64,000 nucleotides of DNA from an uncultured virus (IMG/VR IMGVR_UViG_3300025674_000003) (lineage: Duplodnaviria; Heunggongvirae; Uroviricota; Caudoviricetes; Crassvirales): IMG/VR virus record IMGVR_UViG_3300025674_000003; one strand, written 5' to 3'. Of this stretch, positions 1,814 to 62,105 are shown in pieces (position 1 is the first letter of the stretch; each line of letters opens with the position of its first letter). The notes below the pieces were generated by a model. The model saw only the letters and a list, made by a program, of their open reading frames with translations, was not told the DNA's origin and made no database searches. The translations under genes and the position numbers were made by a program.

Positions 1814-2260
1814 TTATCTATATTTATCTTTATTTACGTTATATATAGCTTTTGTTAAAACTTTATCACTATATGATTTACACTTTATAACAGTGTTTCT
1901 TCTTTCGCTAGTTGGTATGTTTTCTTCACCTAGCATTATTTTGTAAATTCTATTTATTAACTGTTTAAACTTAAAAGAAACTTTATATATGTTATATTTT
2001 TGAGTAGTTCTATTTCTATTTCTCCAAACAACAATCCAATTGTTTTTTATTAACTTATTCCATCTTCTATTATTCCAACTAAAGGAATAACTACCTTCTA
2101 TAAAATCTTTTTTAGTAAAATATTCTATAGCATCTAAATATACAAGCAGCTCTAATTCAGCATCTGTTAAGTCGTTGTTTTTACAAGCCCATTTGCGTAT
2201 TATACGGTAATGTTTTAGCAGGTTTAATTCTTTTAAATCTTCTGCATCAAGCTTTCTCAT
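1814..2260 (-). CDS. Basic hypothetical protein, possible winged-helix DNA-binding protein
   Basis: LTDAELELLVYL helix followed by a WIVVW...YKVS strand pattern. Confidence 0.5.
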   Translation of the reverse strand: MRKLDAEDLKELNLLKHYRIIRKWACKNNDLTDAELELLVYLDAIEYFTKKDFIEGSYSFSWNNRRWNKLIKNNWIVVWRNRNRTTQKYNIYKVSFKFKQLINRIYKIMLGEENIPTSERRNTVIKCKSYSDKVLTKAIYNVNKDKYR

Positions 2261-2517
2261 AAAACAACGACCACGTCTTGTATTTTTATAACGTGATATA
2301 TATTTTTTTCATATTCTATTTTATGACCAGCGTGTCGATCATATAATATAACATCATTTTTATTTAGACCTTGTATTTCATCGCCAACAGAGTAAACTGT
2401 AGCCTGAACATATCTAATGTCATCTCTATGGTTTTCAGCTAATAACAAACCACCTTTTGTTTTAGTAGTTCCTTCCTTAAGCTTTTTAATAATAATGTTT
2501 CTACCTACCGCCTTCAT
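2257..2517 (-). CDS. groES: Co-chaperonin GroES (Cpn10)
   Basis: TKGGLLL mobile loop, VYSVGDE, DVILY, IQDVVVVL; adjacent to groEL. Confidence 0.9.
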   Translation of the reverse strand: MKAVGRNIIIKKLKEGTTKTKGGLLLAENHRDDIRYVQATVYSVGDEIQGLNKNDVILYDRHAGHKIEYEKNIYHVIKIQDVVVVL

Positions 2518-10359: not shown

Positions 10360-10381
10360 TTGTTTTTACCTGTAAAACGAC

Positions 10382-10645: not shown

Positions 10646-10676
10646 ACGGACTTACTCGCGTCATATGTAGATAATA
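10646..10676 (+). promoter_or_regulatory. Putative early promoter P1
   Basis: ACGGACT-TACTCGCGTCATATGT-AGATAATA (16-nt spacer); an isolated extra CACGGACTTGCG lies at 10610-10621. Confidence 0.75.
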
Positions 10677-10718: not shown

Positions 10719-10958
10719 ATGTCAAAAGTAAATCAAATTACTACAAAAAGATTTGTTATCAGAAAATCTTTAATCGGTAAAAACACAGTGATTACATTCA
10801 CTAACAAGAACAAAGAAGTATGTAAGTACAATCACGACTTAGTCTACAATCAATTAAAAGAAAAGTTCGATGCTATGCCATGCTTCAACAAGTACAACAG
10901 TTATACAAACTCAAACAATCTACCTAAGTTTGTAAGAGACCTTGAGAAAATAGTATAA
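10719..10958 (+). CDS. Early protein, paralogue A (79 aa)
   Basis: 62/79 residues identical to 11158-11397 by manual alignment. Confidence 0.85.
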   Translation: MSKVNQITTKRFVIRKSLIGKNTVITFTNKNKEVCKYNHDLVYNQLKEKFDAMPCFNKYNSYTNSNNLPKFVRDLEKIV

Positions 10959-11088
10959 CACTAATGACCTAAGCAAGTCACTAAACTGCTTTATTTTTTA
11001 TTAGCCTGGTTTTGAAATAGGATCGGAAGAGTATACTCCAACCTACGCTATACTTAAGTATTCTTTTTATACCATGTTAGCCACTCGC

Positions 11089-11119
11089 ACGGACTTGCGT
11101 GTTAATTTAAAAGATAATA
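11089..11119 (+). promoter_or_regulatory. Putative early promoter P2
   Basis: ACGGACT-N16-AGATAATA. Confidence 0.75.
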
Positions 11120-11157
11120 TAACTGTAAGCAACGAAGCTTACATTAAACTATATACT

Positions 11158-11397
11158 ATGCAAAATACTAAAAAACTTACAACAAAACGCTTTGTAATTC
11201 GCAAATCACTAATTGGTCAAAATGTAGTAATTACATTTACTAACAAAAACAAAAAGAAATGTACTTATAACCATGACTTAGTTTACAAGCAACTCAAAGA
11301 GCGATTTGAAGCTATGCCTTGCTTCGCTAAGTATAAATCTTATACTAACTCTAATAACTTACCAAAATTTGTTAGAGATTTAGATAAAATAGTCTAA
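11158..11397 (+). CDS. Early protein, paralogue B (79 aa)
   Basis: ATG 11158 gives the same length as paralogue A; the 11074 start would run through promoter P2. Confidence 0.85.
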   Translation: MQNTKKLTTKRFVIRKSLIGQNVVITFTNKNKKKCTYNHDLVYKQLKERFEAMPCFAKYKSYTNSNNLPKFVRDLDKIV

Positions 11398-12915: not shown

Positions 12916-12946
12916 ACGGACTAAATATAAATGACCACAGATAATA
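12916..12946 (+). promoter_or_regulatory. Putative early promoter P5
   Basis: ACGGACT-N16-AGATAATA. Confidence 0.75.
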
Positions 12947-13167: not shown

Positions 13168-13446
13168 AGCTAGACGAGTAGCTTAATTAGGTATGATTAA
13201 AGGCAACAAGACATTTATGACACTAAGGTTTGATCACCTGTAATTGTGTGAACTATGACGTTGGCTCGATGATTACACATAAGTGAATAGCTAGCAAAAC
13301 ACCAATAACATCAATGCTCATTTACGCTTCGGCAGTATCAAGTAGTGCAGTATGTGAGGTGTTAAATAGTACAGTATCACGGATTGCAGAGTAATTAACT
13401 GCATGCACGGTGGAAGTCCGACTGCGAAAGCAAAGATAACTGTACT
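13168..13446 (+). ncRNA. Unassigned structured RNA(s)
   Basis: No convincing ORF, GC above background; stems AACACC/GGTGTT, GC-TTCG-GC, AGTACAGT/ACTGTACT, TGCAG/CTGCA, TGC-GAAA-GCA. Confidence 0.55.
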
Positions 13447-13650: not shown

Positions 13651-13724
13651 TGCGCTGTGGAGCAGTTGGTCAGCTCGCTAGGCTCATAACCTAGAGGTCG
13701 CAGGTTCGAATCCTGCTGGCGCAC
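13651..13724 (+). tRNA. tRNA-Met(CAT), initiator-like
   Basis: Cloverleaf TGCGCTG/TGGCGCA, GAGC/GCTC, CTAGG-CTCATAA-CCTAG, GCAGG-TTCGAAT-CCTGC. Confidence 0.93.
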
Positions 13725-13745
13725 CTAATTTTAAACTATATAATT

Positions 13746-16605: not shown

Positions 16606-16689
16606 GTAGATATAAAATTTATAAGCATTTAATTGCTACCGACGCGTTTGGTATACGTACCAAAATTAAAAATTTTGTAAAACCTAGGC

Positions 16690-16732
16690 AGACAAAAGCC
16701 TATAATAATAAGAAAGTAAGAGGCTAATGTCA
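16690..16732 (-). promoter_or_regulatory. TGACA...TGTC inverted-repeat site 3, overlapping the start codon at 16727
   Basis: Reverse complement TGACATTAGCCTCTTACTTTCTTATTATTATAGGCTTTTGTCT. Confidence 0.65.
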
Positions 16733-17350
16733 CGTGAAAGAAACATGAAGTGGTTAAACGATCGTAGAATAAATTATAGGTGTGATCCTATTAATGACAA
16801 ACCTACTATTGAAAATTCATTGTATAGTTACTATGAAAATGGCACGCATGAATGTTATCACTTGTTTAATAGTAAAGCTAAAATTACTACATATAAATCT
16901 TTAAAATGGCATTTTTATGTTTTATATTATTTAAATACAGAAATACAATTAAGACAAGGTTATTGTAGACTTATATTTAAATTTATAGCAAACAAAGAAA
17001 ATGGTTTTGTTACGTTTTTTATTAGTGATAAAAAGTTAAACGAAATGATTAATGATGTCTTTAATACTGGTGGCGAACCACCTATAAACAAAAAACGTAA
17101 GATAATATTTAAAGATTTTTGTGGCTTGTCGTTTGATCAAAAGATGAGTGTAGTAGGTAAGCTTATTGGTAGATCTACTCGCGTGAGCGTAGAAGATATT
17201 TATCAATGCATGTTAGATCTAAATGATTGCGGTAAAAAAATAACATGGAGTAGAATAGCGGGACTGCTAAATTGTTCAGAAAGAACTATAATAAGAAAAA
17301 TAAATAATGAATTAAAAAAAGAAAAAGATATATTAAATGAAGAAATATAA
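16727..17350 (+). CDS. C-terminal HTH DNA-binding protein; candidate replication initiator/regulator
   Basis: ITWSRIAGLLNCSERTIIRKI helix-turn-helix. Confidence 0.6.
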   Translation: MSRERNMKWLNDRRINYRCDPINDKPTIENSLYSYYENGTHECYHLFNSKAKITTYKSLKWHFYVLYYLNTEIQLRQGYCRLIFKFIANKENGFVTFFISDKKLNEMINDVFNTGGEPPINKKRKIIFKDFCGLSFDQKMSVVGKLIGRSTRVSVEDIYQCMLDLNDCGKKITWSRIAGLLNCSERTIIRKINNELKKEKDILNEEI

Positions 17351-18095
17351 TATTCAAAACTATATAAGGTATAAAGAAGATATTAAAAAATCTATGCCAG
17401 AAGAAAAGTTTTACGATTACTACACTAGAAATGAATTAATTATAAAATTTTTACCTTTAGTAGAAGCTATGGCAAGAAAACAATCAACATCTCAACAGGC
17501 TATAGGTGTATTAACAATAATGGATCTGCTACAAATAGGTGGTATGGCTTTAGTTAAAGCAGTTGATAAGCTTGACTGGGAAATGTTGATCGATAAACCT
17601 GATATTGAAAAAACATTAAAAAGCTTTTTTAGTAAAAGAATAAAAGGCGCAATACGTAGAAGAATAGATATGCATAGAGGTAATATGAGAATACCTGAGC
17701 ATAAACAAAATGAAATAAGAAATAATCCAAAAGATAAGAAAATGGTAGAATTATTTTTTAATAGTATGTTTTTAAGTATTGATGCTAAAAGCGTTACAGA
17801 TGATGAGAATTTAATGTATCAAATACCAGATAAATCAGAACCTTATAATTTACAAATACTAAATATATACTTAATGGGTTTAATGGAAAAACATTTAGGC
17901 GTTAACTCTAAAGAATACGAAGTATTAAGACTATCATATGGTTTAGATTGTGATAAACATTCTGCAAAAGAAATAGCTCGTATACTAAAGATAGAAGGTG
18001 TTAGTGATTATGTAAGAGTTTCAGAATTAAAAAAGCAAGCAATAAATAAATTAATAGAAAACGTTGATCACTCACAAGTGCTTGATTTCCTGTAG
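17337..18095 (+). CDS. RNA polymerase sigma-70 family factor
   Basis: Region 2 (RNELIIKFLPLV, DLLQIG..ALVKAVDK, RIKGAIRR), LSID, region 4 (VLRLSYGL..SAKEIA..RVSELKKQAINKL). Confidence 0.9.
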   Translation: MKKYNIQNYIRYKEDIKKSMPEEKFYDYYTRNELIIKFLPLVEAMARKQSTSQQAIGVLTIMDLLQIGGMALVKAVDKLDWEMLIDKPDIEKTLKSFFSKRIKGAIRRRIDMHRGNMRIPEHKQNEIRNNPKDKKMVELFFNSMFLSIDAKSVTDDENLMYQIPDKSEPYNLQILNIYLMGLMEKHLGVNSKEYEVLRLSYGLDCDKHSAKEIARILKIEGVSDYVRVSELKKQAINKLIENVDHSQVLDFL

Positions 18096-18106: not shown

Positions 18107-18137
18107 ACGGATTTAAAAATAAATGTAAAAGATAATA
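18107..18137 (+). promoter_or_regulatory. Putative early promoter P8
   Basis: ACGGATT-N16-AGATAATA, upstream of the replication genes. Confidence 0.65.
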
Positions 18138-18179
18138 CATATGTGTGATTATAATAATAAGCAATTTAAATAAAAACGA

Positions 18180-29963: not shown

Positions 29964-32900
29964 TTATAAATTTATATCCAAATCTAAATCTACATCTAGA
30001 TCTATATCTTCTATTTCACCTCCAAAATCAATACCAAAAGGATTGTTAGGAGTGTTATTGTTTTGGTTTTGATCTTCGTCTAAGTCTAAATTCCATTTAC
30101 TAAAGCCAAAGAAAAACGCCATTCTTTGCCAAGTTTCATATTGACTATCTAAAACAGACATTGCATTCTCTGCTTTTATCATCAACCTATCAAGAGGTAT
30201 ATTTAAAGTAGCAGAAGTCATAGTAGTTAAAGCTTCAAGCGCATATTTATTTTTAAAAGGATTCCAACCGTAATAATCAAAATATTCTGAATTATAACTA
30301 TAAGATTGCCAAGCTTTTGCTATTTTTCTAGCTTTAATACCTATTGAAGGTGAAACATTTAAAGCTTCTAAAACTACTTGATATTCTTTACCTCTACCTT
30401 TTCTAGGATCTTGGCTTAGTTCATAAGCTTTTAAACCTACATTTTTTATAGCGGCAATATAAGCACCATATAAACCAGCTCCTCTTATTAATGTATCTAA
30501 CATACCGTTTGCGGCTCTAGTTTTACTCTGCGTATAATCTACTTGTTGATCATCATCATCGTCCCACATTCTAAATAATGCGTTTTGTAAAAAATTAAAT
30601 ATGAAGTTTTGAACAGCAGCATAATAAACTATTTTAGAAACATTACCAGCAAAACTACCTCTTCTTTTAGCTATGTCAATTGCAGATCTTTTTATAATTC
30701 TAGAATATTGAAGAGGAGTATTTTGAAAAGACAAAAATAATCTACCTTCTACTGATGCTTGATTTTTAGATATTCTAGCAGGATCCGCAGACTGTTGACT
30801 AACTTCAGCTGTTTCGTAAAACTCTCTCATCGCTTGTTTTTCTGCATCTGGTAAATCTACTCCTTTACTAACTAAATCATTTATTCTATTTCTATAAAAT
30901 GTAACACCACCTAATGTTATAGCTAAACTATCTGCAGCTCTAGTTGGTATAAAACCTTTTTTAAGAGCCCAAAATATTAAACCTTTTGTTTTTTGTGCCC
31001 ATGTTTTATTATTAGGATTATTTAAGACATCTACTATTTCAGATTCTTGTAAATCACTTAACAAACCAGATCTTCTATCTTTTAAATAAGGAGAATTCCA
31101 AAGAGTGTTAAAATCTTTAGCCATTTGTGGAACATTTAATATAGCTTTACCAGCGGCTAAAGGATTATTAAATGTCATATTAATAAAGTTTGTAGCTGAT
31201 ATTGTTTGAAGCAAAGCAGATCTCATGTTAAAGAACATAGTAACACCAACAGAACCATTTAACCAATCAACCCAGCCTCTAGTAGCTTTACTCATTCCTT
31301 TAGGTTTGTTAGTACCTGTCTCCATTCTATGAAGTATGTCCGTTAAAGCATCAACAAAAGGTGTACCATAAACAGCTTCAAGCTTAGTCATTGTTTCTTT
31401 ATTAAATATAATATCTTTGTTTTGTTTCCATTTTTGAAGATATTTAGCTCTATTTAATTTCGTTAGTATTGACTGAACATCACCTAATACACTACCATCT
31501 ATCCATTGTTGTGGTGGCTCTATATATCCATTAGGTTGTTTTGATAAAAGAGATATTTGATTTGCTATCTTTTTAAGCTTAGGATTTGTTCTTACAACTT
31601 CAGATAAATTAAAAATATCTTTATTTTCTAAATCAGGTATTTGATAACCTGCTTTTTTCCACAAATAAACTCTTATAGCTTGATCATTGCTAAAGCCAGA
31701 ATAGCTAGAATCTTCTCTTAATAGTTTTTTAGTTGGTTTATCAAATAAATTTTTCCAATCTCTATGTGCTGAGTTTCTAGCGTTAATTAAATCTAAACTA
31801 CCCTCTGAGTAAGGTTTAATTAAGTTTTCAGTAACCCAATCTATTTGTTTTTGACCTTTTGTACCACTGGCTGAAGCCACAATATACATTAATCCTAAAA
31901 AGTCAGCATCACCTGGTGGTAAATAAATTCCCTGATTAGAAATACTTTTAGCCATTTGCTCTGCTCTAGCTTTAGAAAAACTTTCTTCAACTGCGACACC
32001 TGTGTTTTCTTCTATTATCTCATTAAAAGCAGTATTTAAATTATTACTATATTGCTTTCTTTCATTTTGCATAGAAAATTTAACATCTGAAACGTCTAAA
32101 ACGTTTTTAGTTATTTTACCTTTTCTATTGTTTTCGTTTTTAAAATTAAAATCATTGTAACCCTGAGATATTTTATCTATTAAATAATAAGAAATAGCTT
32201 TATCATTCATTTTACCTAAGTCAGGTACATTAAATTTATTTGTTCTTTTCTTATATTTTATAACCTCTCTAGAGGCTTGATCCATTATTCTAGCTGTAAA
32301 AAATTGATCTGCCGTATTATTTGTATATCTTAAATAAGAGTTTAATTTAGCATTGTTTTTAGTTCCATTACTCATGCTAAATTTAATTTTATCAGACTTA
32401 CCTGTAGCAAAATTATTTATTACTTTATTTCTAGTATTTATATTTTTTAAATCATTATATAAATTAGGATTTTTATTAGATATTTCATTTAAAAAAGCAT
32501 CGTTTCTCAATGAATTTCTACCTTCTTGTAGAACAACAACATCACCAAATAACTCCATTAAAGCTGTTCTTCTGTCAAAGTAAGCAGTTGCCCATAATTT
32601 ATTACCAGTTCTACCTAATTCTACAGGTAAAAACTTTTTTATTAAAACATTTGGATTTTTACTATACGTTCTGATTATCCTAGTCGCTTCATCTATACCA
32701 AAGTAACTTTGTAAGAAAGTAGCTACGTTTATATCTTTAGTTTTAATGGGTTGACCTTGATCATTTGTGTTTTTTAATCTTGGTGGTATTTTTTTAATTG
32801 CATAAGTTGATTCACCTGTAACTGGATCTATAGGGTTGTTAATAACGTCCCATATTAATTTCCAATTATTAAACATAAAAGAATCTAAATCTTTGCTATT

Positions 32901-35900
32901 TTGAAAAGTCATTCTTCTTGAAAGAGTTTGTGAAAGAATAGATAATTTCTTTTTAAAATTTCTAAAATCTAAAGTTTCTATATTTGGTGATGATAATATT
33001 TCTCTTCTAACCTCTGCCGCTATTATAGCTGCTGGGTTTATCTCTTGAGAATAAGCTTTATATGTTTTTATCATTCCACCGGAGGCTACACTATAAGTTT
33101 TAAATGACTTTAGCTTTTTAAGTTCTTTAACTTCTTCGTCTGTTAAATACTTTTTACTTTCTAATTCTAAGCCTCTTTCAAGATCTCTTTTTTCTTGTTC
33201 TAATTGTTTTCTTATTGCAGGATCAGTTACTATTTTAAGCTTTTTATTAACAGCAATAGATGGGTCGTTTGCACTTAAAGCAAAATCACCTCCAACTGGT
33301 ACTCCTTCTATCAATATAGGTTGACCATCTTTATTTGAAAAACCAAAAACAGGATCAGTTAATAATGTTATTAATTCATCTTGATTTTTTTCAAACTCTT
33401 CTTTTTGTTCTTGTATTTCACTTTGACTAGTTGTTTCTATAGATGTAGATCTCTCATCTATTTCATCTGTAAATTTTTGACTAGTAACGTTACCAGTTCT
33501 AAGTGCAGTTTTCATTTTATTTCTTAACTGGCTATTTATCCAGCCGTTAAGATTATTGTTTTCTAATACAATTTCACCTTTAGAATTTTTATATCCTTTT
33601 TCGTCAAGCTTATTTAACGCATTATTAATTTCAGAAGAAGACAAACCTTTTTCTTTTAACTCTTTTCTTTTGTTTTCTCTTAATTGTAAAAATTCTTTAT
33701 TAAAGTTTCTAATGTGAGGTATTAAAGCAATAGCTGTTTCAGCTAACATGTCTTCTGCGCTATAATCAGGTAAATTACTATATAATACACTAGCCTTGTC
33801 TAATATAGGTTTTTCATATTCATTTAGAATATCATAAAGAACAGAATCTACACCCGTAGATTTACCCCATAAATTTTTATTATAAAAAGAATTTACTTTA
33901 GCTTTAAACTCTTCACTAGATATAGGTCTTTTAGTTTTTAAAGCAAACTTTTCGTCAAAAGTATAATTATCTTCTATTTCTTTTATTTCATCAGGTGTTG
34001 GTTCTCTATCAACAACAGGTTGTTTAGGCGCTTGTTTTTTGTTTTTATCTACAAATTTTTGTGATTCAGTTTCAAGAGCTTTAGTATCTACTTCTGCTCC
34101 TTGTTTAGCTACTTTGGATAAAGCTTTGTTTCTATCTGCTGTTAATATTCTAGCATTTATACTAGAGTTATAGTCTTTTATAAAATTATAAACATCTTTT
34201 GCTGAGTTAAATTTTATATCTTTTAATCCTAAAAACTGCAAAACTTGTCTTATTGTGTCTGCTATTTTAGTAAAAGTATCTGTTTCATATGTTACAGCGC
34301 CTACTGTGATAGCGTCTGAGTAAAGAGTTAAAACTTCTTCCCATTGATTACCAACAGCTTCAGCTACCTTTCTATCATATTCTTGTTTAGTTATAGTACC
34401 AGCTTTTAAATCAGCATCAAAGCCTTTTATAACATTATTATAAAAATTTATATAGCTAGTAAAATCAGATAAAAATTCATCTGGTAAAGCTTTTTCAAGA
34501 GACTCGTTGTTATCCAGTTTGTCTTGTATCTTCATTACTTCTGCTAATAAAGATTTTCCTAAAAGAACTTGTGCTTGTGGATTATTTCTTATTGTTTCAT
34601 ACATTACAGCATGTAAAAACTCATGTTCCTTTACTGTAACTTTACCATCTTTAGCTGCTTTTTCGTTATTTATTACTATATACTGCTGATCACCTCTTTG
34701 TATTGTTGTTCCATATTTACCAGCTGTAGATATAGCTTTTGCTTTTGTATAGCCTAATTCATTTACTAAAAAATCTACAACTTCATTTGTAGAATTAAAT
34801 TCATTCCAAGAGACGTTTTCTATTTTACCACTTTTTATAGCTTTTTTTATTATACCTGACTTTCTTTTTGTTATGTCATTATAATAAGCTGTTTTTATTT
34901 TTTCATCTAATGCTGCTATTCTAGCATCTGTTTCTGAGTGAAAAGAAGGATCTTCTGTTTTTCTTTGTTGTCTTAGTTTAGCTACTTCATTTACATCTCC
35001 TAGTATTTGAGTTGCAGCTTCAGCAGATAAATCTTGAGGCATTCTATTTATATTATTATCAAAAGCATTTATTTCTTCTAATAATTGATCAGCCTCTTGT
35101 TGAGTGTAAATATTTTGTGAAACTTGAGTTGCTAACAAATCTTTAACTGAATCTTTTTTATAAGCTAAAAAACTTAACGCATTAAATCTATCTATAGCAC
35201 TCATTCCAAGAAGTTGTCTAGCTGTTTGTTTTGCTAAATCAACAGTAACACCGGCGCCAGGTAACACAGCTCCAGCAAAGAAAGATAAAACACTAGTGTC
35301 AATAAAGTCTTGAAGACTCATTGTGTCTTTTAATATTTTTCTACCAGCTCTATCATTTACATTTTTATTAACAGCAAAAGTTTCACCTATTTGTTGCACG
35401 TTTTCTTGAAACATTTCTTTAAAACCTTCGCCACCTAAATTAATAAGCGTTCCAAGTTTTCCACTTCTAAAATAATCTATAAAGCCTTTTTTACCTTTTT
35501 TAGTATATTCTTGTATGGCGTTAGAAACAAAGTTTTTAGTTGTTAATTTTCCAAATATAGCATCTGTTGCTCTTGTTTGAGGTGATATTGGTGCTGTTAT
35601 CGCATACAATATACCTGTTTGTATAGATCCTATAGCAGCTAATTCTTTAGCTTCTTGATCATTTAATCCAGCTTTTCTAGCTTCAGCTAATGTGTTTTCA
35701 TATCCTCTAGAGAAACCTATAGTTGCTTGACCTATTATAGCATCAGACATTGTTCTCTTAATAGGAATAGATTTTAAAAATTTTCTTGTTTTACCTAGAA
35801 CACCTAAACCTTTTGTAAATCCTCCAACGGCTCTAATACCATTACCCATTCCTCTTGAAAGTGCTATTTGAACAATTAAATCACCTATAACTTGAGATCC

Positions 35901-37322
35901 AGCATCAAAAGCACCAAGCGTACTAAACGAGTTATCTTTTACGCCTTGTTTTCTTGCTTTTTCTCTTATTTCATCACCTTTTTCTATTGATAAAAAATTT
36001 GTTGCATCTATTTTTCTATCTACGTCTAATATTCTACCATCTCCTGTTACCAAGTATTTAGTACCTGTTTCTTGATCAATTATAGACTTTCCAATACCAG
36101 AGACATATCTACCAGGACCAGTATTATATGTCAAACCAAAATCAAAGCCCATAGCTTCTAAAGCTATTTCTTCTCTTATAGATTCTGATACTCCTTCAAA
36201 ATAATCACCAGGTAATAAACCATAAGCAGAAGCGCTTAATTCACTTACACTTTTGCTAAAGCCATTCCAACCATTACCTAACACATTTAATATAAATTTA
36301 CCCGTGCCAATATTTCCATTTGTATCTAATAATTGTTTATACTGAAGTTGTTCTCTCTCATCAACCTCTTGCATTTTAGCAGATATAAGAGGAAATTCTT
36401 CTCTTAAATAATTTTCGTATTGATATATATTTATATTTTCAGGAGATAAATTAAACTTTTTATTTGTTACTTTTGGATCAACACCTGTTTCTAGCTCATA
36501 CATCAACTGCTGCTGCTTAATATCTCTCTGCAGTTGATCATTTATATACATGTTTAGATATTGTAATTTTTTTCTTTCATAAGCTAATTCAGGGTCATAA
36601 TTATTACCATATGATTTTTTATTTAAATCTAATTCTAAAAATCTTTTTAAATCTTCATCATAGCCTTTTTCTTTCATGTAACCAGCAAAATCCACCTGAT
36701 TCATGTTTTCTAAATAAATATCACCATATACATCGTCTACAAATCCGTCATTAGGACTTTTGTCTTCGTATATATATGGTTTATTTAAATTTTGTATATC
36801 TATATAAGCTTGTATTTCATTAGGGCTTTTTGTTTGAAATGTACCTATCTTACTTCTAGCTTGTTTTCTTTCATAATCACTAGGCATAATCAATGTAGAT
36901 ATACCAAGAGGATCTTGCTTATAACCAGCTTTTATTAAATCATCTTCAGAAATAAAACCATAGTCTAAAGCTCTTTGAACGTTTTGGTCTTCAAAAGTAC
37001 CAAACTCATTAACTTCTAATAAATCTTCAGGATTAGTTTTACTTATAGCTCCACCTATTTTTTGAGACAACTCATCATTTCCTTGTGGATTAAAATATTC
37101 AAAATTATCTAGAGATACCGAAGAAAAATTTTCCGAAGTTAAATCCCCATCTTGATTCGGTGCGAACAGGTTGTTTGAAGGCATCGCATCTGCACCTGCT
37201 GCAACACCCTCCACTTTTTTTAATTTTGCATCCGGGTTTTCAGATAAGAAAATTATTCTTTGTTCTTCTGGCATGTTAGTCAAATCAACTTCTTCGCCGT
37301 TTGGTAATATATATATTTCCAT
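29964..37322 (-). CDS. Giant putative ejection / polyvalent protein with zincin motif and sigma-region-2-like segment
   Basis: 2452 aa at the end of the tail/ejection block; HEFLH at 34611-34625; sigma-like segment about 33498-33840. Confidence 0.7.
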   Translation of the reverse strand: MEIYILPNGEEVDLTNMPEEQRIIFLSENPDAKLKKVEGVAAGADAMPSNNLFAPNQDGDLTSENFSSVSLDNFEYFNPQGNDELSQKIGGAISKTNPEDLLEVNEFGTFEDQNVQRALDYGFISEDDLIKAGYKQDPLGISTLIMPSDYERKQARSKIGTFQTKSPNEIQAYIDIQNLNKPYIYEDKSPNDGFVDDVYGDIYLENMNQVDFAGYMKEKGYDEDLKRFLELDLNKKSYGNNYDPELAYERKKLQYLNMYINDQLQRDIKQQQLMYELETGVDPKVTNKKFNLSPENINIYQYENYLREEFPLISAKMQEVDEREQLQYKQLLDTNGNIGTGKFILNVLGNGWNGFSKSVSELSASAYGLLPGDYFEGVSESIREEIALEAMGFDFGLTYNTGPGRYVSGIGKSIIDQETGTKYLVTGDGRILDVDRKIDATNFLSIEKGDEIREKARKQGVKDNSFSTLGAFDAGSQVIGDLIVQIALSRGMGNGIRAVGGFTKGLGVLGKTRKFLKSIPIKRTMSDAIIGQATIGFSRGYENTLAEARKAGLNDQEAKELAAIGSIQTGILYAITAPISPQTRATDAIFGKLTTKNFVSNAIQEYTKKGKKGFIDYFRSGKLGTLINLGGEGFKEMFQENVQQIGETFAVNKNVNDRAGRKILKDTMSLQDFIDTSVLSFFAGAVLPGAGVTVDLAKQTARQLLGMSAIDRFNALSFLAYKKDSVKDLLATQVSQNIYTQQEADQLLEEINAFDNNINRMPQDLSAEAATQILGDVNEVAKLRQQRKTEDPSFHSETDARIAALDEKIKTAYYNDITKRKSGIIKKAIKSGKIENVSWNEFNSTNEVVDFLVNELGYTKAKAISTAGKYGTTIQRGDQQYIVINNEKAAKDGKVTVKEHEFLHAVMYETIRNNPQAQVLLGKSLLAEVMKIQDKLDNNESLEKALPDEFLSDFTSYINFYNNVIKGFDADLKAGTITKQEYDRKVAEAVGNQWEEVLTLYSDAITVGAVTYETDTFTKIADTIRQVLQFLGLKDIKFNSAKDVYNFIKDYNSSINARILTADRNKALSKVAKQGAEVDTKALETESQKFVDKNKKQAPKQPVVDREPTPDEIKEIEDNYTFDEKFALKTKRPISSEEFKAKVNSFYNKNLWGKSTGVDSVLYDILNEYEKPILDKASVLYSNLPDYSAEDMLAETAIALIPHIRNFNKEFLQLRENKRKELKEKGLSSSEINNALNKLDEKGYKNSKGEIVLENNNLNGWINSQLRNKMKTALRTGNVTSQKFTDEIDERSTSIETTSQSEIQEQKEEFEKNQDELITLLTDPVFGFSNKDGQPILIEGVPVGGDFALSANDPSIAVNKKLKIVTDPAIRKQLEQEKRDLERGLELESKKYLTDEEVKELKKLKSFKTYSVASGGMIKTYKAYSQEINPAAIIAAEVRREILSSPNIETLDFRNFKKKLSILSQTLSRRMTFQNSKDLDSFMFNNWKLIWDVINNPIDPVTGESTYAIKKIPPRLKNTNDQGQPIKTKDINVATFLQSYFGIDEATRIIRTYSKNPNVLIKKFLPVELGRTGNKLWATAYFDRRTALMELFGDVVVLQEGRNSLRNDAFLNEISNKNPNLYNDLKNINTRNKVINNFATGKSDKIKFSMSNGTKNNAKLNSYLRYTNNTADQFFTARIMDQASREVIKYKKRTNKFNVPDLGKMNDKAISYYLIDKISQGYNDFNFKNENNRKGKITKNVLDVSDVKFSMQNERKQYSNNLNTAFNEIIEENTGVAVEESFSKARAEQMAKSISNQGIYLPPGDADFLGLMYIVASASGTKGQKQIDWVTENLIKPYSEGSLDLINARNSAHRDWKNLFDKPTKKLLREDSSYSGFSNDQAIRVYLWKKAGYQIPDLENKDIFNLSEVVRTNPKLKKIANQISLLSKQPNGYIEPPQQWIDGSVLGDVQSILTKLNRAKYLQKWKQNKDIIFNKETMTKLEAVYGTPFVDALTDILHRMETGTNKPKGMSKATRGWVDWLNGSVGVTMFFNMRSALLQTISATNFINMTFNNPLAAGKAILNVPQMAKDFNTLWNSPYLKDRRSGLLSDLQESEIVDVLNNPNNKTWAQKTKGLIFWALKKGFIPTRAADSLAITLGGVTFYRNRINDLVSKGVDLPDAEKQAMREFYETAEVSQQSADPARISKNQASVEGRLFLSFQNTPLQYSRIIKRSAIDIAKRRGSFAGNVSKIVYYAAVQNFIFNFLQNALFRMWDDDDDQQVDYTQSKTRAANGMLDTLIRGAGLYGAYIAAIKNVGLKAYELSQDPRKGRGKEYQVVLEALNVSPSIGIKARKIAKAWQSYSYNSEYFDYYGWNPFKNKYALEALTTMTSATLNIPLDRLMIKAENAMSVLDSQYETWQRMAFFFGFSKWNLDLDEDQNQNNNTPNNPFGIDFGGEIEDIDLDVDLDLDINL

Positions 37323-40141: not shown

Positions 40142-41416
40142 TTAATAAGAAGATTCTTTGTACTCTGTAGATATGGCAAATAATTCATTATTACCAGAAT
40201 CTCCAGTGTTTGTTGCGGTAAATAAAACTTCTGCTGTATATCCTTTTATACCAGAAATAGATCCACCATAAACAACCTCACCTTGAGCAAATGCAGTAGA
40301 ATTAACTATGTTTGCAAAGTATTTATCTTCTTTTCTTTTAAATTCGTTTTTAAATAATTGACTTTCTAAATCATTTAAAGTAGTAGGCATTACATAAACA
40401 TTTATTGGAAGACCAGAATCTCCTGAGTTAGTTGATATACTTGTCATTGACCAGTTGGATCCACCTTCGTAATTTATTGTTTGAAAGTTTTTAACTAATG
40501 AAGGCTGTTTGTTAAATATAGTAGTAACAGTTGAGTTGTATTGTGTACCGTAAAAATTAGCTCTATTAACATTTGATGCATAGTGTAAATATATTCCTCC
40601 TGAATTTGTAGAATAAAAATTATTTTGAACACTAGCCATATTGTTTGGAGCATAACTATATCTACTTGACCAACCTTGAACTTGTTCGTCAAAACTTAAT
40701 GTTTCTACATCTATACCACTAGCTTTAGATTGTATAGAAACAACATAACATTTGTTGTGAATATCCCATCCGCCAACTACTCTACCATTGTTTAGAGTTG
40801 AAAATCTATCTCTAAAATAATCATACATACCATAAGCTGATATTTCTGTAATACCGTCCATAGAAAGCCTTAAAACAGCTCCCTGTGACGCGTCTGTAAA
40901 GTATTTTCTATAACCATAAACAGCAAAACTTTCTGGATTTGTACTTATACCAAACTCACCAGCATAAGGTGTTATAGCACCAATAACAACGTTAGATGCT
41001 GTTTGAACAGGTTGTCCTTCTTGAGTATATATAGCGTCTTTATCAATAAGAGCTCTATTAACTTTGTTTTCTTGAAATATAATTAAATTAGTATCTTCAG
41101 CGTAAAGTTTTTGTATAGAGCCTTTAGTTGGATCAACTGTTCTAGTTATGTCTTCACCAGAAGGAAACTGATTAGTTTGATTTATACCAGTTCTAGAGTT
41201 AAGTATTCCAGAGTATATAATAGAATTTCCTAAAGATTCTTGTAAATTTTGCTCTGCTCTTAAAAAAGCTCTTGGTGCTAGACCTGTTTGAACATTATTA
41301 TACCCGCCTTTTATTCTAGATTCTTCAATAAACCAGTTATAAGCAGTGTTTACATCTCCTTGTACTATTTTTTTTAAAACAAAGGTGTTATAGTATTTTA
41401 CTGGTGTTATAGCCAT
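40142..41416 (-). CDS. Tail stabilisation/hub protein, C-terminal part
   Basis: GSIQKLYAEDTNL, GISTNPESFA, KNFQTINYEG, KEDKYFANI. Confidence 0.65.
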   Translation of the reverse strand: MAITPVKYYNTFVLKKIVQGDVNTAYNWFIEESRIKGGYNNVQTGLAPRAFLRAEQNLQESLGNSIIYSGILNSRTGINQTNQFPSGEDITRTVDPTKGSIQKLYAEDTNLIIFQENKVNRALIDKDAIYTQEGQPVQTASNVVIGAITPYAGEFGISTNPESFAVYGYRKYFTDASQGAVLRLSMDGITEISAYGMYDYFRDRFSTLNNGRVVGGWDIHNKCYVVSIQSKASGIDVETLSFDEQVQGWSSRYSYAPNNMASVQNNFYSTNSGGIYLHYASNVNRANFYGTQYNSTVTTIFNKQPSLVKNFQTINYEGGSNWSMTSISTNSGDSGLPINVYVMPTTLNDLESQLFKNEFKRKEDKYFANIVNSTAFAQGEVVYGGSISGIKGYTAEVLFTATNTGDSGNNELFAISTEYKESSY

Positions 41417-41451: not shown

Positions 41452-44400
41452 CTATGCTGGTCCAACAAATTGTGATCCAAAATCAGTAGGATAGCCTGGA
41501 ACACTACCATTTGAATCAGCATAAAAAGGTGTTGTATTATTTGGGTTTGTTATACCTAAAGTTGTTCCTAAAGGTGCGTTTTGAGTTGTAGAATAAGTTA
41601 CGCTAAATGTACCAACAGTTGTTGCGTTTCCTGGAGTTTGTTGAAATTGCAAGTTAACTAAAGCGCAACCTGAATAATCATAACTACCATAGTTAGGCGT
41701 GTTTGTGTTTTTCATTCCTGGTCTTAATCCATTTTGCTTAGCAGTATTAAATTCACTTGTAGTTAGACCACCTGAAGCAGCTGTAAAAGGTTGTAATACA
41801 GCAAAAGTTACTGGAGCTGTCGCCATTCCAGCTTGAGGAGAAGAAGGTGGATTTGAGAAATTACTATTTGCCGTGGCATTTGGTATAAACGTATATGTAT
41901 TTCCTTGTGCGTCAGTACCACCTGTTGTATTATCTCCAAAACGTCCTCCCGCAATTGTTCTATGTTGTGAAGAAGAACTTTGAGTAGAACTTGTTATTTC
42001 TGCTTTTATATATAAATACACTGTATTTGGTGTCCAGTTTTGAATTTGATAATATTGATCTTGAGCAGCACCAGAAAATTGCGAAACTCCGTTAGAACTT
42101 CCACCAGCACCAGAATTATTATACATGTTTATTATAACACCTGTTCCTTGGTAAGCTCCTACATAGTATTCTATTTTAGCACTTGTTCCATTTGGTTGTT
42201 GAGTACTTTGAGCTCCTAAAGTATCAGTTAAATTCATATATATTTCATACTGATTACCTGGTTCATTTGCCCAGCCAGGGAATTGTCCATTTGCGTTTGG
42301 TTTAGCAGTGAGTGAGAAAAAAACTTGATCACCACTAGCACTAGTAGCTTGACCATCTTGATAAGTTGGAAAATTACTACTATTTTGATACGTGTTAAAA
42401 ACTTGAGATAAATTTAAAGGTGTTGATGTTTCTGTTATTGTTTGAGTAACACCAGTACCAGAATTAGTTTTTACCGCACTGTCTATTGTCCAACCAGATG
42501 TAAAATTTGAAGAAGAAAAAGTTATTTTTGTTGGCGAACTATCATTTAAACTGTTTGCTCTTGCTGAACCGTTTTCACCTGCCATTGATTGATTTGCTCC
42601 AGGGTTATTTGTAACTATACCTCCAGCTGATGATGTAACCGTAGGATAAACAACGGCTGGCGTGCATATTGGAGTTGTATTTTCTAACTGAATTATTGTT
42701 GATTGATCAACTTGAGTACCATCTATTTGAACAAATGTAAATGTAAATAAAAATTTACCTCTAGTAGCGACACTATCTGATTCAAACGTTGCTCCTGCGT
42801 AAAATCTATCATTTGTTTTTATAACGTAACTTCCAGTTTGAGCACCTGTTTCAACTGTAAATCTATTTGCTTGAGATGTACTTGAATCTAATTGACCTAT
42901 ATTAGGACCACTTGAAAAATAACTAAAGCATGTGAAGCCTGCTAAAGTAGTATTTGTTAAATTCTGACCACCAGCAGTTGGGAAAAAGTCTGTAGTTATT
43001 GCAACACCTGAAGCCATTGATTCAAAAAATCCATAACTAAAATTACTTAAACCTGTTATATTTGTGTTTTCATTTTCTATATCTAGATTTAATTCAGATA
43101 TTAAGCTAGATGTTGAAGATTCATAGAATAACTCTAACGGTGAAACATAAGGTGCTGTTTCGTAAACAGCTAGACCTAAGTCAGGTGAATAAGGAAAATT
43201 ACCACTACCTTGTGTAGGTATTGTATATTGACCTTCTTTTAAACCTACAGCTTTTTGAGTTGATATTTTAGCTATAAACGGTTTTGTTTCATAACTATAT
43301 ATTGAATAAAAGTTTATTTCTCCAACAGCAATTGTTGGAGGATTTACTGGTTGTAAACCTGGGAATAAATCTTGTATACCACCTACTAAATCAACTTGAT
43401 CAGAAGACGCTTCTGGATCTATTTGTTTATTAAAAGTAGAATAAGTGACTGTAGTAGAAGCTACTTCATTTATATTAGTAACTCTTGGCCACATAGCAAC
43501 ATCACTTGTAAATTGATTTTGCTGAGGCCCAACATCTTGTAAATTTCGAGGTACTTTATTTATATTATCATTAACTAAAGATATAAATCCTACTTCATTT
43601 TGTTCTTTTGTTTCGCCTTTTATAGGATAACCATTTATAATCCCGGGTAAATAAACATTGTAATAATCTTGTTGTTGTTGTTTTACCACAGATTTATAAA
43701 TATAAAAACCTAAAACATTTATATCGTAAGTTGCGTAAGTATTTATTTGACCTAATTTACTAGGTTCTGGTCTTGTTCCTGGTGTGTTATCAAATAAATA
43801 ATTTGTTGCAACTTCTTCTTTTGTAAAAAATTCAACACCCCTAACTCCATTAGAATCACTAATAGCTGTTACACTTGTGATTTCTGTATAATCTATATAT
43901 AATCCTTTCAACTTCTTTCCTACAGCATAATAATCAGCGTATGTAGAAGGAAAATCAGGAAATAAAGGTCTGTTTGTACTAGATGAAGCACCTGTATCAT
44001 ATTTGTATAGGTTTTCAGATGTATATAAGACTTCAAACTTTACAACATCACCAACCGGTATCCCTGTTGAAAAAGTTACTTGTACATAATTATTTGAATT
44101 AGCTATAGTATATGAAGTACTATCTTGTAGTATCCAACCATTACCGCTATCAACTAAAACTCTAAAAGTATTATCATTTGAATTAGCATCTGCATACAAT
44201 ATAGTTGTTGAAAAAACTGTTTGATTAGCAGTTGCTATTATACACTCTGTACCTAAACTTCTAAAATAAGCATATAATGCACTTGGTGCACTTGCAGTTT
44301 CTGTGTCTACTTCATAGTAATTACCTTGAGCATATGCTCCTGGATAACCAGATATACCTATATCACCTTCTGGTATTTGTTGTAAGTAATTTAAAGTAAG

Positions 44401-46386
44401 AGTATCACCCGTCCAAGGTTGAAGTGAATTGCTAAAACTTATTGGTTTGTAATCGTGATAAAAATTAGAACCAGGTTGAGGATCACCATTTGAATCTAAA
44501 ACACCATCATAATTAGATAATACAACATCAGTTTGCCTACCATATTTGTCAGACAAAACAATACCGACTTGATAATTTCTATTTTGTTTTACTGAATGCT
44601 GAGGATATTCTATAAACTGCTGAGCGCTTTTATCAGCAACACCTACATAGTAATCTAATCCATTTGGAGCACTATGACCTTCTAGGTAATTAGCATACAT
44701 TATTCTATTGCCGCTTGTTTCTTGAGCTAAAGCTTTAACAGGAACTTTGTCAAATACTCTAGTCGTTTGTATTGCTGGTAAAGTTGTTATAGGTATAGTT
44801 GATTGATAAGAGTATTGATAAATGTTAGTATTATTTAATGAGTTTATAAAACTAGAATCTACTTTTACTGTTTCAATAACTTGATATGCTTGAGTATCTG
44901 ACTGCTTGTATATTATGTCTATAGCTTTTACCTTATACTTATTTATTATATCAATACATGGTAACTCAATATTTAAAACAGCGTTGTTTATAGAGTTCTG
45001 CATAAACTCTACAACACTAGTTATAAAAGCTTGATTTTCATCATCATTAACAAACTCACCTTCTTGGTAAGGTATAAATACATCTTGACTAAATGGAGCT
45101 ATAGTTGAATATTCGTTATCATCAAATTTAAATCTATAAGAAAATCTAACAAATCTTTCTGATAAATAATCAGGATCTCCATTCCAACCAGTGTAATTAG
45201 TGTTTCTTAAAACTCTTACAGAGTAACCATCAACTGTAGCGCTAGTACCTGTCGTAGATATGGCATTTGTAGTATTGAATTTAACAAAAGCATTTGCATT
45301 AGGATTTGAAGAATCATAAGCATCTGATGTCCAAAATCTAGTTTCTGTTGTTAAATTTAAAAAACCTTGAGGATCAGGACTTGTTGTACTGTTTCTATAA
45401 CCAGCTGGTAAAACATCTGTACCGAGTTGATCATCACCAGCTCCAGAAGCCCATAAAAATTGACTTTTATAAATACTAGCCGAAGATCCAGCTGTACCTA
45501 TAATACCATTCCATTCAGCTAAAGTGGGTATTCTATGACCAACAGGAGCTAAACCTCTAGGATCTATAACAGCCCATTTGTTGTATAATAAACCATATGT
45601 TACACCATTACCATTATAATTAGCATAATAACACCATCTGCCTTGTTGATTTTGATCAGCTGTGGTCCAGTCTGCTATATTTTGAGCTTCAGGTATTGCA
45701 TCTCCATTTCTATATTTTTTTACAGCTAAATTTTCTTGAGATATTTTATATATACCTATTTCTACTACTGGAGGATCAGCAGCATCAGACATTGTTGATG
45801 GTTTTAATACTTGCTGAAAATTAGCATAATAAGAAGCTCCAGCTCTCATATTTATAAAAGATGGTGGAGAATAAGGAGCAAATTTAGCTACAGATATTTG
45901 ATCTTCATTAGTATAATAACCTAATGGTTTATCTACATTTATTTTTCTAGGTTGATTTCTATTGTCTGTAAAAAATAATTGGTTTTCTATTAAACTTATT
46001 CCAGACATGAAAAAATCATTATTACCAGAAAAATTTAAAAAACTACCATTTACTAATTCTGTTCTATTATTTGTTAATATGTTAACATAACCAATACTAC
46101 ACAAAGCGTTTAAAGGCGCGGGATCAGTTCCAAAATAATTAGTTCTAAAATAATATAATCTATTATTAGCTTCATCTTCGTAAACACCAATTATAATATG
46201 ACCACTAGCTGGTGTTACGCCTGTTGTTGAATTACCTAATATAGACTCAACAGCACCAACATCGCTATTTTCTGATCTAGATATAGCTATGTTTAAAGCA
46301 TCTCTATATTCGTTATTTGGAATTAGTCTTTCATCTAAGTCTTTATTCATTTTAGACTTAATGAAACTATTTTTAGCTTCTGCCAT
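41452..46386 (-). CDS. Tail stabilisation/hub protein, N-terminal part, with inserted Fib_succ_major-like domain
   Basis: KMNKDLDERL..NEYRDALN, LFFTDNRNQPRKIN, FSYRFKFDDNEYS; insert about 45202-45770. Confidence 0.7.
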   Translation of the reverse strand: MAEAKNSFIKSKMNKDLDERLIPNNEYRDALNIAISRSENSDVGAVESILGNSTTGVTPASGHIIIGVYEDEANNRLYYFRTNYFGTDPAPLNALCSIGYVNILTNNRTELVNGSFLNFSGNNDFFMSGISLIENQLFFTDNRNQPRKINVDKPLGYYTNEDQISVAKFAPYSPPSFINMRAGASYYANFQQVLKPSTMSDAADPPVVEIGIYKISQENLAVKKYRNGDAIPEAQNIADWTTADQNQQGRWCYYANYNGNGVTYGLLYNKWAVIDPRGLAPVGHRIPTLAEWNGIIGTAGSSASIYKSQFLWASGAGDDQLGTDVLPAGYRNSTTSPDPQGFLNLTTETRFWTSDAYDSSNPNANAFVKFNTTNAISTTGTSATVDGYSVRVLRNTNYTGWNGDPDYLSERFVRFSYRFKFDDNEYSTIAPFSQDVFIPYQEGEFVNDDENQAFITSVVEFMQNSINNAVLNIELPCIDIINKYKVKAIDIIYKQSDTQAYQVIETVKVDSSFINSLNNTNIYQYSYQSTIPITTLPAIQTTRVFDKVPVKALAQETSGNRIMYANYLEGHSAPNGLDYYVGVADKSAQQFIEYPQHSVKQNRNYQVGIVLSDKYGRQTDVVLSNYDGVLDSNGDPQPGSNFYHDYKPISFSNSLQPWTGDTLTLNYLQQIPEGDIGISGYPGAYAQGNYYEVDTETASAPSALYAYFRSLGTECIIATANQTVFSTTILYADANSNDNTFRVLVDSGNGWILQDSTSYTIANSNNYVQVTFSTGIPVGDVVKFEVLYTSENLYKYDTGASSSTNRPLFPDFPSTYADYYAVGKKLKGLYIDYTEITSVTAISDSNGVRGVEFFTKEEVATNYLFDNTPGTRPEPSKLGQINTYATYDINVLGFYIYKSVVKQQQQDYYNVYLPGIINGYPIKGETKEQNEVGFISLVNDNINKVPRNLQDVGPQQNQFTSDVAMWPRVTNINEVASTTVTYSTFNKQIDPEASSDQVDLVGGIQDLFPGLQPVNPPTIAVGEINFYSIYSYETKPFIAKISTQKAVGLKEGQYTIPTQGSGNFPYSPDLGLAVYETAPYVSPLELFYESSTSSLISELNLDIENENTNITGLSNFSYGFFESMASGVAITTDFFPTAGGQNLTNTTLAGFTCFSYFSSGPNIGQLDSSTSQANRFTVETGAQTGSYVIKTNDRFYAGATFESDSVATRGKFLFTFTFVQIDGTQVDQSTIIQLENTTPICTPAVVYPTVTSSAGGIVTNNPGANQSMAGENGSARANSLNDSSPTKITFSSSNFTSGWTIDSAVKTNSGTGVTQTITETSTPLNLSQVFNTYQNSSNFPTYQDGQATSASGDQVFFSLTAKPNANGQFPGWANEPGNQYEIYMNLTDTLGAQSTQQPNGTSAKIEYYVGAYQGTGVIINMYNNSGAGGSSNGVSQFSGAAQDQYYQIQNWTPNTVYLYIKAEITSSTQSSSSQHRTIAGGRFGDNTTGGTDAQGNTYTFIPNATANSNFSNPPSSPQAGMATAPVTFAVLQPFTAASGGLTTSEFNTAKQNGLRPGMKNTNTPNYGSYDYSGCALVNLQFQQTPGNATTVGTFSVTYSTTQNAPLGTTLGITNPNNTTPFYADSNGSVPGYPTDFGSQFVGPA

Positions 46387-58698: not shown

Positions 58699-59163
58699 TT
58701 ATTTTTTACTTATTGTTTTAAATTTTTCTGCACCTCGTGAACCAAAATAAGCCACGTAAACTGTAATTAAAAGAGATTTTAATAGATCAACCCAACCGCC
58801 ATCAACATCAAACTGTATATTAGAGCTTTCAAGAACTATTAAAATTATTAAAGATATAGTTAAAAATATAAGAGTCATAGGGCGTGTGTTTTTAGACAAC
58901 CATGAATCTGATTTCATATCACTATCCCAACGCTTAGATATTTCTTGCATTTCTACCATGTCTTGCTCTAATAACTTTAAAGCTTTTTCTTTATCTTCTG
59001 GTGGTAAAATTACAGGATCTTCTTTTTTTATTAAGTTTTTAACTACACCTAATAAGCCTTGATCTGGTAAAACATCAGATATACCATCAACTAGCTTAGG
59101 CGCAGTTCCTAATAAAAACTGACCGACTTTTGTATCTTTAAACTTCTTTTTATTATCTGGCAT
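58699..59163 (-). CDS. Holin (3TM / GTA-holin-like)
   Basis: SDSWLSKNTRP, hydrophobic helices, AYFGSRGAEK. Confidence 0.7.
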   Translation of the reverse strand: MPDNKKKFKDTKVGQFLLGTAPKLVDGISDVLPDQGLLGVVKNLIKKEDPVILPPEDKEKALKLLEQDMVEMQEISKRWDSDMKSDSWLSKNTRPMTLIFLTISLIILIVLESSNIQFDVDGGWVDLLKSLLITVYVAYFGSRGAEKFKTISKK

Positions 59164-59603
59164 TATTTTTTAATTACCTTTAGTATTGATTGATAAATTT
59201 TATTTATATCGAATGTATTTTTTGCTAAAGATACAGAATTTTTATTTATATCTTCGTAAGCTTTTACAGACGACTTACTAAGTTTTAAATGAGCAGCGTG
59301 TGATTTATTTATTAAATTAATATTCTCAACAGCTTTCTGTATTTTATTAGCGTATTCTTTTTGAGCTTTAACTATTTCACTAGTGTCATAAGGTTCATAA
59401 ATTACACGCGAGTTATCGTTTGTATCTTTAGTTGTCTCGAATGCAGAATAAGCAAAAACAATAGCTTCTGTTATCATACCTATTGTTAATAATAATGAGC
59501 CATATGGCCAGTGTTGAATTTTAGCAAGAGCTCCTAAAATAACGACTGCAGCTCCGAGCCCGTAGAGCATATTAGTAAAGTCTAATTTTAAATTTTTTAA
59601 CAT
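59163..59603 (-). CDS. gldL: GldL/PorL-like two-TM protein
   Basis: YGLGAAVVILGALAKIQHW...IGMITEAIVFAYSAFE matches the GldL N-terminal TM domain. Confidence 0.85.
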   Translation of the reverse strand: MLKNLKLDFTNMLYGLGAAVVILGALAKIQHWPYGSLLLTIGMITEAIVFAYSAFETTKDTNDNSRVIYEPYDTSEIVKAQKEYANKIQKAVENINLINKSHAAHLKLSKSSVKAYEDINKNSVSLAKNTFDINKIYQSILKVIKK

Positions 59604-61637: not shown

Positions 61638-62105
61638 TTAAGAATTTTTAGTTTTTTGATAAGCTTCTTTTTCCCAAGGTAAATTTTTTGCACCTTCATT
61701 CATATCGTCTCTTGAATATGTTTTACCTTCCCAATAAACATTGTCGTCATCATAACTTAGCCTACCATCTTTTATTTGTTTAATATGCACCATTTCATGA
61801 TCTATGACATCTTGCTTTTGTTTTGGATCTTTAATGTCTTTATTTATAAGTATACTACCATTGTTAGTAGCCATACCTAAAGTATCATCACCCATATCTA
61901 CGTGCATTATAGGTGTATTGGAATTTTCTTCATTATATGGTGATCCTTTCATTTTAAAACCCATTTTTAAAGGAGAAGTTCTTTTACTTTTAGCTGCTTT
62001 TAAAGAAGCGTCATTTCCAGTTCCAGCGCCAGATCTTTTTCTTGCTTTGTTCCACTCAGGACTATGCATTAAAGAACTCCAACAGTGTTTTATTGGTGAA
62101 CCCAT
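61638..62105 (-). CDS. Small zincin-like metallopeptidase
   Basis: IDHEMVHIKQ...LPWEKEAY. Confidence 0.7.
   Translation of the reverse strand: MGSPIKHCWSSLMHSPEWNKARKRSGAGTGNDASLKAAKSKRTSPLKMGFKMKGSPYNEENSNTPIMHVDMGDDTLGMATNNGSILINKDIKDPKQKQDVIDHEMVHIKQIKDGRLSYDDDNVYWEGKTYSRDDMNEGAKNLPWEKEAYQKTKNS

Follow-up and report, generated by a model that had tools for sequence, protein, structure and literature searches.

Early transcription in known phages is started by the host holoenzyme, by a packaged RNA polymerase or by a chemically modified host polymerase; crAss-like phages carry virion RNA polymerases, and T4 (gp55/gp33), SPO1 (gp28, then gp33-34) and phiEco32 (gp36) use cascades of phage sigma factors. 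In PMC7824862 phage sigmas, including minimal ones, are separate genes. Polyvalent proteins with a zincin-like metallopeptidase (MPTase) are described in the main text of Iyer et al. (2017; PMC5512222) as large, multi-domain, injected proteins with a proposed autoproteolysis, and the N4 virion RNA polymerase as MPTase-fused; the word "sigma" appears 0 times in that main text (supplementary and FTP files aside). Here we analysed a 64,000-nucleotide stretch (the window) of the IMG/VR record IMGVR_UViG_3300025674_000003, most of the genome of an uncultured aquatic phage, which encodes a 2452-amino-acid (aa) polyvalent protein (the giant) containing a sigma-70 domain 2 (sigma2). The reading that we favour, and hold to be moderately probable, is that the giant is a virion-delivered early sigma working on the host RNA polymerase upstream of a second, stand-alone 252-aa sigma (the small sigma), its upstream promoter element being read by a new domain. 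This would be a third route of early transcription beside the host holoenzyme and the virion RNA polymerase, and apparently one on which a widespread family of aquatic phages relies. A literature search outside subscription papers and supplements found no description of this sigma module.

The giant resembles the polyvalent proteins of PMC5512222 in its late gene block, its HExxH with a downstream Glu and its variable modules, and differs from them, as presented in that main text, in its recurring K-F-S linkers and its co-variation with promoters. Like the virion RNA polymerases of N4 and crAss-like phages, it would be a very large protein that is injected, has a zincin in the chain and presumably sets off early transcription; unlike them, it would deliver a specificity subunit for the host core and not a catalytic enzyme. 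As in T4, SPO1 and phiEco32, a phage sigma would redirect the host core and sigmas would act in sequence, and gp55 lacks region 4, which was not detected in the giant either. Those sigmas are small and are synthesised in the infected cell, from early promoters that the host reads, whereas the first sigma here would come ready-made in the particle. Gene order also ends in a giant gene in the cultured flavobacterial phages Elemovirus and Panino, but neither of them, with 65 of the 77 kb of Panino covered, shows the sigma2 module, the small sigma or the class-1 promoter motif described below. The giant is probably an ejection or cargo protein packed in the virion, as suggested by synteny with Elemovirus alone, where gp18, annotated "structural protein", occupies the same gene slot and carries a homologous zincin (iE 5e-7). 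Its parts are the following:

29964..37322, minus strand: giant polyvalent protein, 2452 aa, ending the virion gene block; 261 homologs
34743..37322, minus strand: N-terminal region, aa 1-860, acidic, with two hydrophobic stretches, the first from about aa 561 and the second from about aa 678; no family
34098..34709, minus strand: zincin-like metallopeptidase, aa ~872-1075; HEFLH at 34611-34625, EE at 34335-34340
33939..33950, minus strand: K-F-A linker (aa 1125) preceding the sigma module; candidate cleavage site
33480..33920, minus strand: sigma-70 domain 2 (regions 1.2/2.1-2.4), aa 1135-1281, by profile and predicted fold
33561..33698, minus strand: helical insert of 46 aa (aa 1209-1254), within the loop that joins region 2.2 to region 2.3; missing in distant relatives
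32388..33437, minus strand: post-sigma2 domain, aa 1296-1645 (350 aa), confidently folded; candidate reader of the upstream element
32373..32384, minus strand: K-F-S linker (aa 1647) ending the sigma module; relatives insert modules at aa 1650-1697
32070..32081, minus strand: second K-F-S linker (aa 1748), preceding the C-terminal domain
30063..32045, minus strand: conserved C-terminal domain, aa 1760-2420; no family; in 40/42 related records

The initial annotation had noticed a sigma-region-2-like segment and a zincin motif within what are aa 900-1275 of the open reading frame (ORF), and both proved real. A family profile of the segment gave 14 matches in the PDB, 13 of them sigma factors (best E 0.00097), and the best 21 matches of its predicted fold were all sigma domain 2, so that profile and model together confirm it as a true sigma-70 domain 2. 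It is like the described examples (PF04542; FliA 9wsf/6pmi, SigE 8b3z, SigC 2o7g, RpoH 8hkc) in profile and fold over regions 1.2/2.1-2.4 and in the acidic core-binding and aromatic columns conserved among giants; it is unlike them in being embedded in 2452 aa, in its 46-aa insert, in the unfamiliar domain that comes next and in its scores, single sequences of the segment staying below the Pfam and NCBIfam cut-offs. Foldseek against PDB and BFVD gave no match at E<=0.001, and zero matches were returned for the whole giant by Pfam and PHROG and for the sigma2-containing segment and whole giant by tblastn against INPHARED phages. The window residues D1191, E1195, F1207, W1261 and K1269 sit at conserved columns; those of D1191, E1195 and W1261, which we take to correspond to E. 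coli D403, E407 and Y430 when read through the FliA alignment, are conserved at 47%, 87% and 96%, and the tryptophan pair is absent. Among 112 non-redundant segments, chosen by profile, D or E occupies the acidic core-binding column in 87%, two aromatic columns are conserved in 98% and 96% and a basic column in 97%.

The sigma2 profile matches 604 protein clusters. A first-look search of 42 small-sigma records found the C-terminal domain in 40 and sigma2 in 27, and sigma2 was for a time read as an optional cassette; this was rejected, since the missed giants that we fetched carry a diverged sigma2 in the same slot. Sigma2 was present in all 37 fetched giants, in 28 by profile and in 9 through its pattern, recognised by eye at the same position: an iterated profile whose training excluded the 37 scored 27 of them higher than the top reversed decoy (5.3 bits), though four reached just 5.6-8.6, and the 28th is a frameshifted match. 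In L045 the diverged sigma2 stands behind a kinase module, and two giants (G068 and G094; L363 and L379) show two sigma2-like matches in one protein. A profile of the diverged slots matches the first sigma2 profile (probability 94.6, E 6.8e-8), partly by construction because the segments were anchored by eye.

Modelling of sigma2 on the beta' clamp, which the initial annotation had proposed, gave a score of 0.60 with Flavobacterium johnsoniae beta' 1-350, against 0.00 for the best of three controls; the runs agreed in at least 66% of contacts and partner pLDDT was at least 79. The mark used for this score was reached by 116/157 solved complexes and 2/215 mismatches, and at 0.60 or less by just 18 of the 157 solved complexes plus both mismatches. 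The predicted docking is weakly supported, and it speaks for likeness only, because sigma2/beta' is a textbook pair and F. johnsoniae is a stand-in host. It is very improbable, in our view, that the fold is a relic or a structural helical bundle of an ejection protein with no role in transcription: sigma2 is kept in every giant examined with its functional columns conserved, the predicted beta' binding, weak as it is, lies above the controls, and the module co-varies with promoters 15-20 kb away.

The zincin residues H900, E901, H904 and E995-E996 were invariant in 56/56 sequences. Matches to zincin, sigma2 and C-terminal domain were found together in 183 of the 212 fetched proteins longer than 1800 aa, and among 65 non-redundant giants, picked by those same matches, 64 kept the same domain order and 64 had an intact HExxH. 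K-F-[SA] linkers flank sigma2 and the post-sigma2 domain, holding both as one piece. The pattern [KRM][FY]S occurs between sigma2 and the C-terminal domain 104 times, with 34.3 expected, and in the N-terminal part of the giants 31 times, with 29.8 expected; these linkers are a concrete candidate substrate for the long-proposed self-processing of polyvalent proteins. Relatives carry insertions between aa 1650 and 1697, and AAA_33/zeta-toxin-like kinase modules stand between K-F/Y-S linkers in some (P0115, aa 1455-1617; L045, after the zincin). Elsewhere in the window, the ORFs 59674-61635 and 61638-62105 (minus strand) each have HExxH and a downstream Glu and may be additional zincins.

The eight promoter-like sites that the initial annotation called P1-P8 (class 1, ACGGACT-N16-AGATAATA) also stood up as real; all lie on the plus strand, in an early/replication arm of ~10.6-27.5 kb, the virion arm being on the minus strand:

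10646..10676, plus strand: class-1 site P1, ACGGACT-N16-AGATAATA
11089..11119, plus strand: class-1 site P2
11478..11508, plus strand: class-1 site P3
11822..11852, plus strand: class-1 site P4, ACAGACT variant
12916..12946, plus strand: class-1 site P5
13836..13866, plus strand: class-1 site P6
15442..15472, plus strand: class-1 site P7, the nearest before the small sigma gene
17337..18095, plus strand: small sigma, stand-alone, 252 aa, regions 2 and 4
18107..18137, plus strand: class-1 site P8, ACGGATT variant, upstream of the ERF gene and overlapping a candidate class-2 site

The small sigma gene lies downstream of 7/8 sites, in keeping with the earlier proposal that they would express a second sigma. 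Directly behind P1 and P2 stand tandem paralogous small genes (10719-10958 and 11074-11397, plus strand), which track promoter type, probably through linkage. A generic sigma-70 promoter scan found 56 sites with 46.0 expected, and among the matches listed in a collection scan for the exact promoter most were single chance ones. A related motif with a GATAATA box was present in 16/20 early regions reached via the giant and in 58/61 reached via the small sigma, a second genome sample independent of giant domains in which 61 of 80 loci had sufficient upstream DNA. Upstream elements vary, comprising ACGGAC, TTACAAACAAAA, TACAAA..AATACGA (the commonest), TCGAAA, TACGTTAC and TTTGCAAAC. The class-1 motif was not found from the short upstream stretches of six loci (G015, G013, G031, L281, L323, L344). 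One genome (G021; L145-L148) was dropped as a case of a module without class-1 sites: it shows no early region and two partial virion blocks in a record rated 99% complete, and is probably chimeric.

The class-1 sites might instead be read by the small sigma, through leaky host priming and self-amplification, or by an alternative sigma of the host; sigma2 of the giant would then only bind core, as a decoy that displaces host sigmas or as a tether of polymerase to the incoming DNA. We consider this unlikely, although the small sigma contains both region 2 and region 4, equals the majority promoter in its degree of conservation and co-occurs with class-1 sites in those 58 early regions, and no region 4 is detected in the giant. 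The GenBank relatives cannot tell the two sigmas apart as readers because both are missing: neither sigma nor the class-1 motif was found in Elemovirus, Panino (65 of 77 kb covered) or a spring-water record, which have instead TAnnTTTG sites of host type, the housekeeping promoter box of Bacteroidota. A pure decoy would have no need of the DNA-side aromatic and basic columns that sigma2 conserves.

What separates the two sigmas is how promoters co-vary with them, for which 45 genomes were combined: 15 from the first set, leaving out G019 with its broken giant, and 30 reached via the small sigma. Upstream-element similarity was 0.82 in 60 pairs sharing a post-sigma2 cluster and differing in small-sigma cluster, and 0.54 in 80 pairs sharing a small-sigma cluster only, with a background of 0.58; without the ACGGAC clade the three values became 0.82, 0.67 and 0.67. 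One small-sigma cluster (12 genomes) spans four promoter types, which sort by giant module. Among the six ACGGAC genomes, three have small sigmas 52-57% identical to that of the window, and genomes at 68-76% bear other elements. Trees with L005 (98% identical) replacing the window's giant united the ACGGAC genomes in one clade for zincin (100/99), C-terminal domain (100/100) and sigma2 (82/95); in the small-sigma tree they are not one clade (approximately unbiased (AU) test with G027 left out, p 0.0115). The same region 4.2 helix also occurs in small sigmas of genomes with different upstream elements; that it is invariant was true of the first 14 genomes and fails in the 45 (motif in 31/45).

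Joint regression gave p 0.001-0.009 for the post-sigma2 domain in all four subsets and p 0.07-0.15 for the small sigma. In the largest sigma2 cluster, G precedes GATAAT in 11/11 genomes, across five small-sigma clusters; the two bases before GATAAT follow sigma2 weakly (rho 0.19-0.23), and likewise the small sigma and the C-terminal domain. In a two-part sigma one would expect such a split, the upstream element going with the post-sigma2 domain and the bases before GATAAT with sigma2.

Another possibility is that sigma2 is a minimal, -10-only sigma like T4 gp55, with the upstream element read by the C-terminal domain or another virion protein and the post-sigma2 domain a passenger. A DNA-binding fold of that domain is unproven, and across the full set the upstream element shows a strong correlation with the C-terminal domain, yet pairs sharing only its cluster reach 0.69-0.72 against 0.82 for those sharing only the post-sigma2 cluster, and among 31 majority-type genomes its effect vanishes (p 0.43) while that of the post-sigma2 domain persists (p 0.001). 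Paired tables favoured the post-sigma2 domain over both the C-terminal domain and sigma2 at all thresholds tried, and the linkers bracket sigma2 plus post-sigma2 domain as a unit; we regard the gp55-like alternative as improbable.

Several observations weigh against a virion-delivered, two-part sigma. The genome pairs are non-independent, the cluster thresholds were set by us, and the AU test on the capsid was not significant against the ACGGAC clade (p 0.056). Overall the correlation is equal or higher for the C-terminal domain (rho 0.58 vs 0.40; full-set coefficient 0.47-0.48). A test restricted to the first 10 distant genomes favoured nothing (giant's sigma2 ranked 16/31, small sigma 10), and a C preceding GATAAT goes with one small-sigma cluster as well (5/5). 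The commonest promoter type, TACAAA..AATACGA..GATAATA, is common to ~15 post-sigma2 clusters with a median normalised similarity of 0.04, the small sigma staying at 0.61 across it; this weakens the reader role, because the reader of a conserved site should not diverge so far. Post-sigma2 profiles of the window clade and of distant genomes align over 31 columns only (probability 1%). The initial annotation had seen no region 4 in the giant, and neither profile nor fold matching brought one out: the post-sigma2 domain had no PDB profile match, region 4 was not among the 50 VIA rows listed for it, and class-1 sites with their sigma-70-like 17-bp geometry would suit a sigma with two domains, like the small sigma. 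The 15 most diverged sigma2 slots, combined into a profile, gave no sigma match in PDB or NCBIfam, and three giants of the independent small-sigma sample (G056, G062, G084) match sigma2 and are without HExxH. The earlier claim that the giant's segment directs P1-P8 is accordingly upheld in part: promoters co-vary with the giant module rather than with the small sigma, and region 4 is undetected. The post-sigma2 domain is at present a candidate for a new promoter-reading fold; an ESM Atlas search with it gave one viral cluster at 0.77.

Under the virion-delivered reading, the giant would enter the cell with the DNA as a modular cargo protein, and the module between the K-F-[SA] linkers might be freed there by the neighbouring zincin, a step that would not be obligatory. 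Sigma2 would dock on the host beta' clamp, as weakly predicted, and open the GATAATA -10 box, and the post-sigma2 domain would replace region 4 and read the upstream element, as co-variation suggests. Host core plus module would then fire P1-P8, from which early and replication genes would be expressed together with the second sigma; on weaker indications, that sigma would probably go on to serve a second promoter class. A phage RNA polymerase would be unnecessary, and sequence profiles (Pfam and PHROG) found no RNA polymerase family among the window's large ORFs. More tentatively, and with somewhat less confidence than doubt, we suggest that a whole family of uncultured flavobacterial phages (the 604 clusters) injects a protease-released sigma made of domain 2 and a non-sigma reader, swapped between lineages together with the promoter. 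Such a family would amount to a natural collection of promoters, each with its matching reader (at least 5 promoter types), usable in vitro without phage culture.

The small sigma matches PHROG 351 (E 5.6e-14) and, weakly, the Pfam families of regions 2 and 4; its identity in most relatives is 52-82%. Its likely target, on a weak signal, is a second motif:

18125..18153, plus strand: candidate class-2 promoter GTAAA-N14-TGTGATTATA; alike sites at 10369 and 4469 (both minus strand)

Within the window alone this pattern is at chance level (3 found, 3.0 expected). Across genomes of several class-1 types GTAAA-N14-TGTRAT precedes the ERF gene and some late genes, and in a count over 17 genomes a gap of 14 gave 86 sites vs 39-70 at other gaps. 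Upstream of a 207-aa HTH gene, a separate element at ~16685-16729 (plus strand; GACAA..AG....AGTAA..GGCTAATG) is conserved in 15/15 genomes shown; it is often an inverted repeat and could be an operator or origin.

The host is probably a flavobacterium, because the capsid is 42-50% identical to those of a spring-water phage, Elemovirus and Maribacter phage Panino, with 42-48% for the last two, and is matched by Cellulophaga phages too. A gene for a GldL N-terminal domain, a component of the flavobacterial gliding motor, agrees with this (59163-59603, minus strand, in the late arm; Pfam E 1.8e-23). A GroEL gene (2257-4054, minus strand; E 3.9e-56) with a small GroES-like neighbour is found also in Elemovirus. 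The tail muzzle-like protein (PHROG 14478; crAss_MUZ_C) is encoded by two ORFs, 41452-46386 and 40142-41416 (minus strand), the first with an inserted Fib_succ_major domain. The early arm contains one tRNA-Met gene (13651-13725, plus strand), and a gene-free stretch at ~13170-13294, to which partial matches from other contigs were seen in three RNA runs, is perhaps another structured RNA.
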